DNA from: Spirochaetota bacterium
Lineage (GTDB): Bacteria; Spirochaetota; Leptospiria; Leptospirales; Leptospiraceae
DNA: 64,000 nucleotides
Reading direction: 5' to 3'
Assembly: GCA_052033835.1 (NCBI GenBank)
Contig: JBPOJG010000025.1
Span: 1,763 to 65,762, forward strand
Positions 251 through 63,557 of the stretch are shown here, piece by piece. The position numbers and the translations under genes are program-made. How positions within the stretch are numbered: the first letter of the stretch is position 1; each line of letters begins with the position of its first letter. Below the pieces are notes generated by a model. It was not told where the DNA came from. It worked only from the letters and a program-made list of their open reading frames with translations, and did not search any database.

Positions 251-322
251 AGCAGCACCCAGCTCCACGCAGTTACCATTAACCCATGTTTCACCTACGG
301 GCGGTTTCGCAAGTATGGAAAC
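251..322. repeat. Modular intergenic repeat, copy 1 (modules D+B, inverted orientation)
   Basis: The reverse complement of ccattaacccatgtttcacctacgggcggtttcgcaagtatggaa closely matches cttccatacttgcgaaaccgccggtaggcgtgaaatgttggttaa at 63483-63528. Confidence 0.8.
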
Positions 323-450
323 TATTAGCGCCGGAACATCCCATTAAAATCATTCTCATTTTAAAAATGCTGCAGATGAGAGTCTTTTTCATCTACTTAT
401 CCGGCAGATCCTCTATACTAAGACCTGAAGTAGAAATGAAGTTTTCTCGA

Positions 451-753
451 CTACTGAAATTTTTCCTTTCTGAGAACCTTCACTTCCTGCAGAAATGCAA
501 TCATCTTGTATTTTGGAAAATATTCTTTTTGTAGAAATTCCATTATAGACTCAGCCAGCTCCTGTTTTGCCAGAATTTCTATCCGAATATTTCTGCCTTC
601 CCAGTTATCTGCCCTTCTTGTGCTTAGACCCTCTCCGTGAGCCTCACTGACTGTATAACCTTTCATTCCCAGAGCTTTCAGATCCTGAATCAGTGCATCT
701 TCCAGAGAATCCAGTGCTATGACTGTAACCAATTGAACTGTGCTTAAATTCAT
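451..753 (-). CDS. P-II-like signal protein (SbtB-like partner of the bicarbonate permease)
   Basis: 100 aa with a P-II-like pattern (VTVIALDSLEDALIQDLKALGMKGYTVSEAHGEGL..., T-loop-like STRRADNWEGRN). Overlaps the upstream permease gene by 4 nt. Confidence 0.65.
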   Translation of the reverse strand: MNLSTVQLVTVIALDSLEDALIQDLKALGMKGYTVSEAHGEGLSTRRADNWEGRNIRIEILAKQELAESIMEFLQKEYFPKYKMIAFLQEVKVLRKEKFQ

Positions 754-1727
754 ACGGACACTCCATAAATTAATTTTGCTATATTTGTATATATCGGAAA
801 TCCCAGTACGATGTTGAATGGGAATGTGATCGCGAGAGAAGAGGTCAGATAGTAGGAAGTGTTAGCCTCAGGGATGGCAATTCTTACGGCCGCCGGTGCT
901 GCGATATAAGAGGCACTTGCACATAGCACACCGAAAATGATCGACCCTCCCATAGAAAGTCCAATCAGTCTGCCTAATGCCATACCTATGGTAGAATGAA
1001 TCACAGGCATCATCAGTGCAAAGCAGAACAGGAAAACTCCTGCTTTCTTTAAGTCCTCAAGTTTTCTGCCTGTGACCATTCCTACTTCCAGAAGAAACAG
1101 AGTAAGAACTCCTTTGAATGGTGTGTCAAAAAGAGGTGCGACCTGCTCAAATCCCTTTTTTCCACTGAGCATTCCTATTATCAGTCCGCCTATCAAAAGA
1201 ACAGTTCCTTTTCCGGTAAACAGTTCATGGAAGAGTTTTTTATAAGAAGATTTATCATTCTTGATATGAATTCTTGCCAGAAAAATTGCCACCAGAATTC
1301 CGGGTATTTCCATAATTGCAAGCATTGTAGGCATATAACCTTCGAATGATATGTTTCTCTGCTCGAGAAATGTAAGAGCGGCACTGAAGGTGACAACAGA
1401 CACAGAGGCGTAATGAGCTGCAATTGCTGCCGAATCCGATGCATTGAATTTTCCCAGTCTGTTCAGTATGAAAAATGACCAGACCGGAATCAATGAACAC
1501 ATCAGAATTGCAATCATCGCCGGTTTAAAAAATTCCGCTATCGGTGTGGAAGAAAGTTTGACTCCTCCTTTTATCCCGATTGCAAGAAGAAGATAAATCG
1601 TGAGTCCGATATACAGTCCTTCCGGTACTTTCAGATCACTTTTTATCAGAGTGGCAAATATGCCCAGAGCAAAGGCCAGCACCATCGGTGTCATAAGACC
1701 ATTCATTAAAGAATCTATCATTTCCAT
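750..1727 (-). CDS. sbtA: Sodium-dependent bicarbonate transport family permease (SbtA-like)
   Basis: 325-aa polytopic membrane protein. The N-terminus (PMVLAFALGIFATLIKSDLKVPEGLY) and overall layout are typical of the SbtA/DUF897 family. Coupled to a P-II-like gene. Confidence 0.65.
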   Translation of the reverse strand: MEMIDSLMNGLMTPMVLAFALGIFATLIKSDLKVPEGLYIGLTIYLLLAIGIKGGVKLSSTPIAEFFKPAMIAILMCSLIPVWSFFILNRLGKFNASDSAAIAAHYASVSVVTFSAALTFLEQRNISFEGYMPTMLAIMEIPGILVAIFLARIHIKNDKSSYKKLFHELFTGKGTVLLIGGLIIGMLSGKKGFEQVAPLFDTPFKGVLTLFLLEVGMVTGRKLEDLKKAGVFLFCFALMMPVIHSTIGMALGRLIGLSMGGSIIFGVLCASASYIAAPAAVRIAIPEANTSYYLTSSLAITFPFNIVLGFPIYTNIAKLIYGVSV

Positions 1728-1752
1728 TATTTTTTGTCCTTCTTTACTGTAT

Positions 1753-2067
1753 TTAAGAAATTATCAGGCAGTATTTACACCTTTCCTGTTTCAAGATGAA
1801 TAAATCACCGAGTCCCTGATCAAAAATAATCTCATTCGGAACTCTTGAATCAGAACACCCGACGATAACTGCAAATGGTTTCTGACCTGCAGACAGTTCC
1901 TTTATTTTCTCGGGAGTCTGATTCGGGTGAATTGATTTTCCCTGAGTGAACCTTTTATTCCCTTCGATCAGCCTGCTGAGTGCTTCATCCGGACTGATTT
2001 CAGACTGAACTGAGCTGACAATACTCAGGAAAATAATCAAAGCTGAACTTATCTGTTTCATTTTCAT
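1753..2067 (-). pseudogene. Beta-carbonic anhydrase, 3'-truncated (N-terminal ~100 aa only)
   Basis: Signal peptide, then EGNKRF...GQKPFAVIVGCSDSRVPNEIIFDQGLGDLF. Homology stops where (V/I)RNAGN should follow. The HxxC zinc-ligand half is absent, and only about 25 nt separate the stop from the sbtA start. Confidence 0.65.
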
Positions 2068-2415
2068 TTAACCTCCTGTATCTTACGGCAGAGTGGCAGG
2101 GGTATTTACAGTGTCCTGACACTTGACCGTAATTACCATAGTATTAGACATGAAATAAAACACAACACTTTTAAAGCATGAAATTAAATTCATGTATTAA
2201 GATGCAGTATACTCCTCTGAAACACTGAATTTCAGACTGCTTAGGGTTGATTCGGATTGGTTCTTTATCCTGATATTCACAAATAGAGTGTTTTTTCCTG
2301 CAGACAGGCTTGATTTCATTGAGTCGAAAAAGAATAATCCGCAAAGGCTTTTGAAAATCAGCAGAATGGGATCAATAGCGAAGCGGCGAAGCGAAATCAG
2401 TGTTCCGCGAACCTG

Positions 2416-2727
2416 CTATTTGAGCAGTTTTAATAAATCCCCTATAGTTTTGTGGGATTCCAGTTTATGTCTAAGAGGAATATTATCAAAAACTTTATAT
2501 TTATTGCGTCGACCCTCTTTGAATCGGACAAGGACATTGGCTGCCTCAAGGTCTTCGATAATTCGAATGACTGCCCTTTCCGTTATGCCGACATTAAATG
2601 CCAGATCGCGCAGACGCACATTCTCATCTCGATACAGGCAGATGAGCACATGAGCATGGTTGCTCAAAAAAGTCCATTCCTGTTTGCCGGACAATGTTTC
2701 TACTGCTCTGCTGTTTTTTTTGGGCAT
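2416..2727 (-). CDS. Winged-helix (ArsR/MarR-like) transcriptional regulator
   Basis: 103 aa with an HTH-like stretch, LRDLAFNVGITERAVIRIIEDLEAANVLVRFKEGRRNKY. Confidence 0.55.
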   Translation of the reverse strand: MPKKNSRAVETLSGKQEWTFLSNHAHVLICLYRDENVRLRDLAFNVGITERAVIRIIEDLEAANVLVRFKEGRRNKYKVFDNIPLRHKLESHKTIGDLLKLLK

Positions 2728-61994: not shown

Positions 61995-62001
61995 TTATAT
62001 A

Positions 62002-62126
62002 CAGATTTCTAATAGCGCAGCGTCGCAAGCTTGGAAATCGCTGCAAGCTCGGAAATCGCTGCAAGCTTGGAAATCGCTGCAAGCTCGGAAACCGCTGCAA
62101 GCGTGGAAGCTGCTAAAATCCCTGCT
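62002..62126. repeat. Modular intergenic repeat, copy 13 (module C end plus 5 x 18-nt module B array)
   Basis: cagatttctaata lies 8 nt after the SUKH gene stop. Five units of gcaagc[t/g][t/c]ggaa[a/g][t/c][c/t]gct follow, and the copy ends in aaaatccctgct. Confidence 0.9.
62025..62114. repeat. Tandem repeat, 5 x 18 nt
   Basis: The units start at 62025, 62043, 62061, 62079 and 62097. The first four alternate cttgg and ctcgg. Confidence 0.9.
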
Positions 62127-62310
62127 TTTTCTCAAATTCCGTGATAAGACCAATTGATTTTCAGTCAACCCCGCGTCTTTGCTTGGACCCCATTTTTCAT
62201 GCATTTACACAACCCAGTGAGATCTTCAGATATAAATCTTGACATCATGGAAATATTCTTCAATATAGGCATTGACAACATAATCGGTGCAGCCGGAAAA
62301 GGAGCCTTTG

Positions 62311-62700
62311 ATGAACGGCATACTTAGGACAGCGGTTCTGCCTATACTGGCAGCATCCGTCTGGATCAGTATTTCTGAATTTCTCAGAAATGAAATTATA
62401 ATTAAATCATATTGGATCAGTCATTATGAAAAAATGGGGATCAAATTCCCTTCTGAACCCTTGAACGGAGCTGTCTGGGGAATCTGGTCAGTCATGTTTG
62501 CAGTCGCAGTATTTATCATTTCAAAAAAATTTTCCTTCATACATACTGCCCTCTTTTCATGGTATATAGGATTTGTGCTTATGTGGGTTGTCATTGGAAA
62601 TCTAGGCGTCCTGCCGGAAGGACTGCTTCTGGTCGCTGTGCCACTCAGTCTGCTGGAGTCTTTTATCGCTGCATTTATTATAAGGAAACTTGCTTTATGA
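62311..62700 (+). CDS. Small integral membrane protein (about 4 TM)
   Basis: AAGGAG 6 nt upstream of the ATG at 62311. Hydrophobic throughout. ATGA overlap with the next ORF. Confidence 0.6.
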   Translation: MNGILRTAVLPILAASVWISISEFLRNEIIIKSYWISHYEKMGIKFPSEPLNGAVWGIWSVMFAVAVFIISKKFSFIHTALFSWYIGFVLMWVVIGNLGVLPEGLLLVAVPLSLLESFIAAFIIRKLAL

Positions 62701-63407
62701 TGCTGACAGAGACTGCAAAAAAAGCAATTGATGCATATGGCGGACGGGAACTCTGGGAAAATTCCAGATACATTGAAGCTGATGTTTCAGTCAAAGGCCT
62801 TGCATTTACTTTAAAAAGAAGGCCATTTTTTGAGAATGCAAAAATCAGAATGGAAATTCACAGACCGGAAAGCAGATTGATGCCTATTGGAAAACGAAGC
62901 GGTATCGTCGGTATTCTGAATGGGAGAGATGTCAGGCTGGAAGACAGTTCCGGAAAACTGATTGAAGAAAGAAAGGATGCGAGGGATTATTTTTCTTTCG
63001 GCAGGAGACTTTTTTACTGGGATGACCTCGATATGGCCTATTTTGCCAACTACGCTTTCTGGAATTACTTTACTATGCCTGCATTGCTGATGAATGATGA
63101 AATAAAATGGACAGAGAAAAAAGAAGGAATTTTGAAAGCCGATTTCCCTGATTCAATTCCAACCCACAGCAGAATTCAGGAATTTATTTTTGACATTAAA
63201 ACAGGCAGACTTATCCAGCACAATTATACTGCAGATATCATCAGCGGATTTGCCACTGCTGCTAATACAGTGAAAGAACATTCGAATATGCACGGTCTAT
63301 TTTTTCCTTCCAGAAGAATGGTTACGCCTAGAAACTTTAACGGTCGCCCGCTTTCTTTCCCCATACTGATTGACATAACAGTTCATCAATTTTCTTTATC
63401 AGTCTGA
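62697..63407 (+). CDS. Hypothetical protein
   Basis: 236 aa from the ATG at 62697, which overlaps the previous stop. No motifs recognised. Confidence 0.55.
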   Translation: MMLTETAKKAIDAYGGRELWENSRYIEADVSVKGLAFTLKRRPFFENAKIRMEIHRPESRLMPIGKRSGIVGILNGRDVRLEDSSGKLIEERKDARDYFSFGRRLFYWDDLDMAYFANYAFWNYFTMPALLMNDEIKWTEKKEGILKADFPDSIPTHSRIQEFIFDIKTGRLIQHNYTADIISGFATAANTVKEHSNMHGLFFPSRRMVTPRNFNGRPLSFPILIDITVHQFSLSV

Positions 63408-63460
63408 ATATCTGTATAAGGTTTGAATCATTTTCTGCAAACGGCGAGGACGAAGTCCCT

Positions 63461-63557
63461 TAGCGGCTTCCACGCTACCAGCTTCCATACTTGCGAAACC
63501 GCCGGTAGGCGTGAAATGTTGGTTAAAGTAACTACGGCGCAAGCTTCAAAGTCGCTG
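63461..63557. repeat. Modular intergenic repeat, copy 14 (modules B+D, reference orientation)
   Basis: tagcggcttccacgctaccagcttccatacttgcgaaaccgccggtaggcgtgaaatgttggttaaagtaactacggcgcaagcttcaaagtcgctg. Confidence 0.85.

Follow-up and report, generated by a model that had tools for sequence, protein, structure and literature searches.

The window and its repeats

The 64,000-nt stretch of contig JBPOJG010000025.1 analyzed here (the window) comes from a member of the Leptospiraceae and carries, between its genes, a family of short modular repeats that are probably MITEs, miniature transposable elements with inverted repeats. The window is ~40% GC and ~86% coding, and its gene content is that of an ordinary chromosome, including large sensor kinases, an adenylate cyclase, a leucine-rich repeat (LRR) protein, an asparagine synthase, and a heptosyltransferase. 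The nearest named relatives of its proteins belong to metagenome-assembled genomes (MAGs) designated “Leptospiraceae / Leptospirales bacterium.” Contigs identical to the window (L040 and L064) and those of near relatives come from Logan sequencing-run and metagenome assemblies, one of which is labelled activated sludge.

An earlier note on this DNA described five modules (A to E) recurring at 14 loci, and modules are indeed present at 14 of 14, at or near the positions it listed. Relative to dinucleotide-preserving shuffles of the window, the motif counts are (i) four matches, all exact, to the D core YTTGCGAAACCGCSSGYAGG (≤2 mismatches) vs 0.00 expected, (ii) 18 matches to the B unit AGCNNNTTCCAAGNTTGC (≤2 mismatches) vs 0.61, (iii) four to the terminal repeat of the elements termed G-type, GTAACTRCTCAGC (≤1 mismatch), vs 0.05, (iv) four to the end of the elements termed A-type, GTAAGGTGAGT (≤1 mismatch), vs 0.39, and (v) four to the C motif CAGATTTCTAAT vs 1.19, the last being weaker taken alone. 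All copies are located in spacers, and the view of a modular, inter-related, strictly intergenic family is upheld. The elements sum to 1515 nt, or 16% of the non-coding DNA of the window, with a GC content of 48.5% vs 36.8% for the remaining spacer DNA. Of the ~30 spacers that exceed 20 nt, 12 were matched to an element; that spacer list does not take in the copies at 238-379 and 63439-63577.

Searches with G-type and A-type nhmmer profiles corrected the extents of several loci: 251-322 becomes 238-379, 4936-5030 becomes 4916-5064, 35733-35850 becomes 35733-~35900, 63461-63557 becomes 63439-63577, and the copy at 14468-14530 starts at 14435. Within 10829-11025, the segment 10967-11025 is solid, whereas 10829-10966 has no profile match. 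Two further stretches had been proposed as degenerate pieces. The one at 21655-21750 is without statistical support, and the one at 42544-42592 is supported solely via L002, a contig of a 95%-identical relative in which a good terminal repeat, GTAACTGCTCAGT, occupies the orthologous position. The copies are listed below.

238-379, minus strand: G-type, almost full length, its ends degenerate; B', Dc, Dm, G5', rcB', and terminal repeat GCAGCTGCTCAAT at 240-252 (nhmmer E 2.5e-25, profile positions 6-149).
4916-5064, minus strand: G-type, full length; terminal repeats at 4916-4928 (CTAACTGCTCAGC) and 5052-5064 (GCCGAGCAGCTGC) (nhmmer E 3e-35).
10967-11025, plus strand: C-framed unit; perfect 15-bp inverted repeat CCCAGATTTCTAATC around one B unit (RNA fold z = -6.5).
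14435-14535, plus strand: G-type, left part only; terminal repeat GTTACTGCTCAGC, F, B, Dc, and Dm, truncated 20 nt ahead of an AAA-ATPase/PDDEXK gene start (nhmmer E 1.5e-19).
16419-16475, minus strand: two-B-unit remnant (nhmmer E 2.9e-6 against the A-type profile).
31797-31985, plus strand: composite remnant; reverse Dm-like piece, 18-nt B unit (31871-31888), and three to four 21-nt B variants (31899-31980).
35733-35900, minus strand: A-type, full length; right-end hairpin 35733-35764, two B units, C'-like AGATTTTCCTAAT, P spacer, and degenerate left end GCGTAATGTGCGA at ~35886-35898 (nhmmer E 7.8e-30, profile positions 3-187).
42555-42592, plus strand: weak remnants; A-like hairpin piece (GTGCGGTGAGT) and G-type terminal-repeat-like GCAGCTGCTCAGT.
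44575-44606, plus strand: minimal A-type; inverted ends ACTCACCTGC...GTAAGGTGAGT as a hairpin, 4 nt past the stop codon at 44571.
44618-44706, plus strand: C-framed unit; GCCC-GAA-GGGC mini-hairpin and two B units (nhmmer E 1e-26).
45780-45862, plus strand: G-type right end (module E); E5, internal repeat-like G5, a pair of B units in reverse, and, at 45850-45862, a perfect terminal repeat GCTGAGCAGTTAC; the gene for a 1763-aa kinase follows 27 nt downstream (nhmmer E 1.1e-6).
53294-53390, plus strand: A-type right part; B, B, Dc-like, Ap, and A3, holding the TAG stop of a glycosyltransferase (GT9) gene and ending 13 nt ahead of the next start codon (nhmmer E 3e-24).
54479-54510, minus strand: internally deleted A-type; left end and right end as a 32-nt hairpin.
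55654-55697, plus strand: minimal G-type right end; E5, G5, and terminal repeat GATGAGCAGTTAC, adjoining an IS3-family pseudogene (RNA fold z = -2.7).
62002-62126, minus strand: chimeric remnant; F, five B units, linker, and C.
63439-63577, plus strand: G-type without left terminal repeat; mini-hairpin, B, B, Dc, Dm, G5, rcB, and degenerate right end (nhmmer E 8.3e-35).

G-type elements and their IS66-type ends

Modules A, D, and E, previously treated as separate, resolve into parts of two elements: A is the end pair of one MITE (A-type), while D and E are the body and the right end of another (G-type), the latter seen at 45780-45862 and 55654-55697. G-type elements are 150-250 bp long, with a 13-bp terminal inverted repeat and an 8-bp target duplication. 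Their parts follow the order terminal repeat, AT-rich spacer, F (GAAAAAGCAGGGATTTT), GNA-loop mini-hairpin, at least one 18-nt B unit, Dc (GCGAAACCGCCGGYAGGC), Dm, internal repeat-like G5, reverse B unit, and inverted terminal repeat. Better-preserved full copies occur in the MAG “Leptospiraceae bacterium AMR_MDS_0884” (DAORDI01) at L013 5563-5720 and L018 1812-2063; both have the inverted ends GTAACTACTCAGC and GCTGAGTAGTTAC and contain a mini-hairpin of the GGGC-GAA-GCCC type, Dc as GCGAAACCGCCGGTAGGC, and G5 as GTAACTACGACGC. The window copies at 4916-5064, 238-379, 14435-14535, and 63439-63577 align with them over their full length (alignment A1). At L013 5563-5720, AAAAAATC directly abuts both ends (8/8 identical); AAAAAATT flanks both ends of L018 1812-2063 (8/8 identical, with a 1-nt offset); and window 4916-5064 lies between CGTGTTT (4909-4915) and CGTATTT (5065-5071), which are identical at 6/7 positions. 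The motif pair GCCTAAC / GTTAGGC in 4916-5064 raised the possibility of an integron attC site, which was dismissed on context, with no attC model run: the elements lie in both orientations between large housekeeping or signalling genes, and the window has no integrase.

The “GTAA” ends and 8-bp duplications pointed to the IS66 family, as summarized in ISfinder. ISDge4 of Deinococcus geothermalis, an IS66 insertion sequence (IS) of the ISBst12 group, has the ends GTGACTACTCAGCA / GTAACTGCTCAGCA and an 8-bp direct repeat (PMC12898284). An independent comparison covered six plasmid-borne IS66 elements with a single open reading frame (ORF), drawn from four phyla. The Geobacillus pHTA426 element encodes DDE_Tnp_IS66 (1.9e-64) and has the ends GTATCTATTCAGCCC / GTAACTATTCAGCCC with the duplication GACGAGTT; homologues of its transposase at 38-58% identity are accompanied by ends of the same type. 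The terminal repeat of the B. thuringiensis pBMB92 element, GTAACTACTCAGC, is identical to the MITE ends at all 13 nt. Terminal repeats and duplications are, respectively, GTAACTATTCAGC and AAAAGAAC in G. stearothermophilus, GTAACAATTCAGC and TTCAATTT in Ca. Chlorohelix, and GTTACTGCCCAGG and CTTCATTC in Acaryochloris, and elements from Clostridium and a second Deinococcus have similar ends. The G-type repeats likewise begin with GTAA, take the form GTAACTnYTCAGC, and come with an 8-bp duplication. From this identity it follows that the G-type carries ISBst12-group ends.

ISBst12-group insertion sequences (ISDge4, the ISGka4 family on pHTA426, and the ISGst1 family on pGS18 of Geobacillus) thus share with the G-type an identical or near-identical 13-bp repeat and an 8-bp duplication. 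As in IS-derived MITEs, the elements here are small, non-coding, and multicopy and are inserted in AT-rich spacers. Unlike the insertion sequences, the G-type has no transposase gene between its ends, and its interior is an unrelated, GC-rich core with tandem 18/21-nt units. Literature searches, which were not an exhaustive check, found no published ISBst12-derived MITE, and string searches of the literature with the A and C ends returned primers only. A candidate IS in contig L037 was set aside, its terminal-repeat-like pair flanking chemotaxis genes.

A-type elements

A-type elements are 166-266 bp long and have a 5-bp target duplication, and the arms of the module A hairpin are their inverted ends. 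The order of parts is end ACTCACCTTACGC, P spacer, C'-like module (ATTAGGAAAATCTAG), F/B/Dc core, Ap (CCAAAAACGCC), and right end, the last being a hairpin in its own right (CCCACCTGC...GTAAGGTGAGT). The inverted ends ACTCACCTTACGC / GCGTAAGGTGAGT are present in five copies: L028 174-439, L029 7046-7211, L041 8560-8815, L067 ~3590-3800, and window 35733-35900, which is 78% identical to the DAORDI01 element in L028. Flanks match perfectly (5/5) at L028 (GATTA) and L029 (TATTA) and at 4/5 positions at L041, a sister-species copy (GCCTT/GACTT), and at window 44575-44606 (AAGCA/AAGTA).

A third relative, L067, has a ~200-bp A-type element straight after “TGA ATA,” where the window has only the 32-nt hairpin 54479-54510. 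The solo hairpins are therefore internal-deletion derivatives of longer elements. Orthologous remnants of 53294-53390 are also present in two relatives.

A shared core and its tandem units

Module B is an internal tandem unit of 18 or 21 nt with the consensus AGC-RGY-TTCCAAG-YTTGC, in which AGC...TTGC is invariant and positions 4-7, 10, and 14 vary; the 21-nt variants occur at window 31899-31980 and also in the sister species. The variable positions lack a third-codon pattern and copies lie in both orientations, so that reading the units as coding repeats (e.g., AASKFA) is rejected, in line with the earlier view that the modules are not fragments of a protein-coding gene. A hairpin formed by each B unit was likewise rejected, the pairing not being kept among variants. 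Module C is an internal palindromic frame, a 12-15-bp inverted repeat around B arrays (10967-11025 and 44618-44706), and is paired with F in 62002-62126.

The core ...CCCTTAGCAGYTTC...TTTGCGAAACCGCCGGTAGGC is common to G-type and A-type elements, and this sharing of one internal core by both MITE types explains the mosaic. The occurrence of the GC-rich core (F, GNA mini-hairpin, B units, and Dc) in two end systems and in the palindromic C frame invites a bolder reading, namely that it is a selected cargo repeatedly captured by, or exploiting, different transposition machineries, or that the lineage has a mechanism that routinely swaps MITE interiors. This is unlikely; in the cargo version, the core could be, for instance, a protein-binding array or an RNA element.

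Distribution and turnover among relatives

As had been anticipated, the family recurs outside the window, in related Leptospiraceae MAGs. In a pattern scan of one genome per GTDB species, the D core has seven occurrences in AMR_MDS_0884, the remainder being ~30 chance matches in unrelated high-GC genomes. JGI metagenomes yielded only six chance matches, on high-GC contigs; viral contigs yielded none; and blastn found no match in plasmids and phages. Members are also found on syntenic contigs of a sister species (L001 and L041-L046) and of the third relative (L067). The family is thus confined to a small Leptospiraceae clade.

Across relatives, the DNA identity of aligned genes is 78-92% (78-84% where protein identity is 74-85%), while every element-bearing spacer is unalignable and holds different remnants: the elements turn over faster than the flanking genes. 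The site at 53.3 kb has three states, with B-B-...-Ap-A3 in the window, only a B-like CAAATTTGCGAG in the sister species, and only an A3-like CCTGCGCAAGGTAAGTAA in L067, where the glycosyltransferase reading frame now ends in it. This enzyme has a different C-terminus in each of the three (LLSDWRWR*, LLSP*, and LLSPVKDDQPAQGK*). The spacer upstream of the gene for the 1763-aa kinase holds a G-type end in the window and an A-type hairpin in the sister species. Finer changes are seen between closer genomes: in conspecific sister MAGs, a 577-nt spacer is identical except for exactly one 21-nt unit, a third MAG has an assembly gap there, and small indels lie inside a G-type remnant between the window and L002. 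The same-genome contig L040 ends at 62054, inside the five-unit B array of 62002-62126, and at 55011.

Effects on genes and RNA-level signals

The proximity of copies to stop codons is confirmed. Copies begin 4, 9, and 8 nt past the stops at 44571, 54470, and 61994, respectively; an element overlaps the last codons of the ORF ending at 4932; and another provides the TAG at 53294-53296. The overlapped ORF is the LRR gene (2923-4932), whose last five codons and stop lie inside G-type element 4916-5064, and the stop of the GT9 gene is provided by a B unit of 53294-53390. This shows that the stop codons or C-termini of two genes have been rewritten by elements. Two same-strand intergenic spacers are almost entirely element DNA. 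An extension by stop-codon read-through works only at 53296 and was taken as chance.

When folded, as the earlier note had suggested for modules A and C, only the A hairpin and the C-framed units beat shuffles, with z values of -3.3 (A-type, 35725-35855), -4.0 (44570-44712, A hairpin plus C-framed unit), and -6.5 (C-framed, 10960-11030). D/B segments fold no better than shuffles (z ~0). No promoter-like or terminator-like sites are found in the two element-bearing stretches scanned (44400-45950 and 35600-36050). The family matches no Rfam model, a check proposed at the outset: there are zero matches at gathering thresholds across the whole window, and an E-value scan of 44400-45950 gave only chance-level hits off the repeats. 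A tRNA/tmRNA scan found none. Element orientation relative to transcription is mixed. Regulatory side-effects are possible; the demonstrable effects are structural.

Origin of the repeats

The recurring modules are probably decaying pieces of small non-coding transposons, i.e., MITEs that are old, partly deleted, and mutually recombined, one type of which has ISBst12-type IS66 ends and 8-bp duplications. Three traits carry this reading: (i) the elements are 30-270 bp long, contain no transposase ORF, and occupy 14 loci in 64 kb, with further copies in three related species; (ii) terminal inverted repeats are present at both ends in L013, L018, and window 4916-5064 for the G-type and in five copies of the A-type; and (iii) duplications are of fixed length, matching at 8/8, 8/8, and 6/7 positions for the G-type and 5/5, 5/5, 4/5, and 4/5 for the A-type, a small sample. 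At any one site, 8 bases of AT-rich flank would agree by chance with a probability of around 1e-4, and 5 bases with one of around 1e-3, which makes the duplication pattern significant despite its small sample.

In the mechanism proposed for such MITEs, a single-ORF IS66-family (ISBst12-group) DDE transposase encoded elsewhere in the genome would move, or would have moved, the G-type in trans. Insertion would create an 8-bp target duplication for the G-type and a 5-bp one for the A-type. Slippage may afterwards add or remove units in the internal B arrays, loss of internal segments would leave solo hairpins or end fragments, and exchange of parts between copies would yield the mosaic. Because the elements land in or beside gene ends, their insertion would have replaced stop codons and C-terminal residues of neighbours.

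Several observations weigh against the MITE interpretation. Neither the window nor ~150 kb of DNA from the lineage yields an IS66-type transposase (tblastn, and Pfam for 29 window ORFs); the search extended to that DNA only, and the autonomous partner is thus a putative one. Target duplications are confined to the best-preserved copies, being absent or unclear at window 238-379, window 35733-35900, L018 7286-7615, and the L001 hairpin, and the informative full copies number only ~7. The C-framed units, which the earlier note had singled out as MITE-like, are the sole units for which no target duplication was detected, at any length tried by eye, despite their perfect inverted repeats. No clean pair of empty and filled orthologous sites was recovered, the sites being old and each relative holding different remnants; at window 4916-5064, the synteny of the sister species differs. 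Copies are only 63-76% identical within and between species, which marks the family as old and gives no sign of current activity. Finally, the MITE reading does not account for the sharing of one core by two end systems.

One rival reading, in line with the original framing, makes the repeats relatives of repetitive extragenic palindromes (REPs), of bacterial interspersed mosaic elements (BIMEs), or of REPINs, in which short palindromes are spread as mosaics by a domesticated Y1 transposase (RAYT) with no target duplication. The extragenic, mosaic, and GC-rich character of the elements (48.5% vs 36.8% for other spacers) and their occurrence in both orientations accord with this, as do the many small GC stems with 3-4-nt loops (e.g., GCCC-GAA-GGGC and CGCC-GGCA-GGCG) and the GTAG tetranucleotide in Dc (CCGGTAGGC). 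The C-framed units (10967-11025 and 44618-44706), clean hairpins with no detectable duplication, are alone still compatible with it. However, RAYT/IS200-type movement does not make the terminal inverted repeats and fixed-length direct duplications (8 bp in D/E-type copies, 5 bp in A-type ones) of the best-preserved G and A copies; the D/E ends equal those of a DDE family, the ISBst12-group IS66 insertion sequences; the D and B segments fold no better than shuffles; and no Y1 transposase is found among the 29 window ORFs scanned. A REP-type origin is therefore very unlikely.

Selection for a cis-acting function, whether as RNA stabilizers or attenuators, protein-binding arrays, or translational hairpins near ribosome-binding sites (RBSs), with the transposon features incidental, is suggested by the several copies that lie 0-9 nt past stops or 13-27 nt ahead of starts, probably within operons. 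The right arm of A, AAGGTGAGT, is Shine-Dalgarno-like (its left arm is anti-Shine-Dalgarno-like) and abuts a real RBS at 53390 and in L001, one core is carried by two end systems, and folding scores are good for the A and C units (z -3.3 to -6.5). Position, however, is not conserved: orthologous spacers hold other modules, orientations, or scraps while the genes are conserved. Together with the mixed orientation relative to transcription, the lack of terminator-like T-runs and promoter-like sites in 44400-45950 and 35600-36050, the lack of an Rfam match, and the decay of the copies (63-76% identity), this renders such a function highly improbable as the reason for their upkeep. Equally little credence is given to the view that the repeats are not mobile, being what is left of one or a few spacer segments that were duplicated long ago and then spread and reshuffled solely by homologous or illegitimate recombination and slippage. 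Copies are indeed old and diverged, many differences between relatives resemble deletions between short direct repeats (e.g., a AGGAAAAA-bounded 52-nt indel between the window and L002), and arrays change via slippage. This account is at odds with a dispersal that takes in at least 14 unrelated spacers within 64 kb as well as unlinked contigs of other species, with defined inverted ends abutted by constant-length duplications in otherwise unrelated flanks, and with ends identical to those of a known IS group.

Other features of the window

No transposase is found among the 29 window ORFs scanned with Pfam, and its sole trace in the window is the IS3 pseudogene. This frame-shifted remnant of an IS3-family transposase (55030-55600, minus strand; OrfA-like “...KLSSDCKIHSNMILKWKKEAVEKF” and OrfB N-terminal-like “MIMNLIEREYARHPLYGSPKLTQFLKGEARH”) has the A remnant 54479-54510 on one side and the G-type end 55654-55697 on the other. 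The sister species lacks the ~1-kb segment that holds it, its spacer being 255 nt long, and contig L047 of a 90% relative stops ~145 nt short of the G-type end 55654-55697. The other same-genome Logan contig, L064, ends at 4603 and 10559. Two AAA-ATPase_like plus PD-(D/E)XK (PDDEXK_9) genes (14555-16174 and 36006-37751) each have a MITE directly upstream (14435-14535 and 35733-35900), which may be chance with about one-third of spacers occupied.

Three paralogous genes of ~355-370 aa without a Pfam match (8131-9222, 53403-54470, and 55728-56840) share “HETLHAYSA(V/M)DLYNV” and are possibly metallopeptidase-like; two are adjacent, split by the spacer with the element and IS3 remnant. The gene at 20130-21641 encodes a 503-aa protein with a He_PIG Ig domain followed by seven tandem 45-residue repeats (135-nt period, KWxGGVLAPNGKIYGIPxDS), and truncated paralogues with the same C-terminal tail lie at 13367-13669 and in relative L002 (387-459). 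Two giant Ser/Thr-kinase + AAA_16 + GAF proteins (25397-31036 and 45889-51180) show DNA-level similarity in the GAF region; one ends in HisKA/HATPase/receiver domains and the other in a SpoIIE phosphatase. At ~38824-38837, the window lacks ~1.1 kb present at 1557-2653 of L002, here a 92-96% identical contig; the missing DNA comprises the end of a cytochrome-c peroxidase gene and cupredoxin and cytochrome-c genes, with an ORF fragment left at 38272-38937. Finally, 5600-7584 (minus strand) is a possible cluster for a ribosomally synthesized and post-translationally modified peptide (RiPP). It consists of an MbnB/TglH/ChrH (DUF692) gene of RiPP-modification type (5853-6797), its partner ORF at 6685-7584, and, downstream, a small ORF at 5600-5872. 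The sister species has a different gene order beyond this point, with TumE-like genes instead.

Comparison with other repeat systems and significance

E. coli BIMEs/REPs and Pseudomonas REPINs resemble the repeats here in being dense and extragenic, in combining short, GC-rich palindromic motifs into mosaics of alternating orientation, and in often lying near stops. REPs lack the combination of terminal inverted repeats and target duplication, and they are linked to a Y1 transposase. With fixed-length duplications, DDE-type IS ends, and no RAYT in the window, the resemblance is superficial.

Chunjie of Geobacter is a MITE that is co-transcribed inside operons, and Correia elements duplicate TA. 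Correia elements of Neisseria are also MITEs co-transcribed inside operons (PMC3049150). Both resemble the present family as terminal-inverted-repeat elements that lie between same-strand genes, sometimes as the whole spacer (53294-53390), and that have internal deletion variants; they differ from it in their ends and target duplications, and the present family yielded no evidence of a promoter or RNase III site.

The likeness to pneumococcal BOX elements drawn in the earlier note is apt. BOX elements of S. pneumoniae and S. suis (boxA-boxB(n)-boxC) also have end modules around variable short tandem units that differ between strains (PMC3049150). In S. suis, two different end pairs (including boxE...boxF) frame the same boxB unit (PMC3049150), much as different end pairs frame one internal unit here. 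Both families are intergenic and modify gene ends. The comparison concerns architecture alone, with no evident sequence resemblance; the units here are 18/21 nt vs 45 nt for boxB, and the ends here are tied to a named IS group, with target duplications visible.

The elements are most simply read as selfish DNA. The family appears to be undescribed, yet it is of a well-known selfish-DNA kind and not a new system, and no new biological mechanism is indicated. The analysis names and delimits repeats that account for about one-sixth of the non-coding DNA here, in a genomic region of an uncultured member of the Leptospiraceae from activated sludge. Repeats of the family appear to fragment assemblies of the lineage, which explains breaks at these places. 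The family neatly links MITEs to the single-ORF branch of IS66, which has been little studied, and shows two MITE end systems with one interior; it also predicts that an ISBst12-type IS66 transposase would be encoded in the genome.

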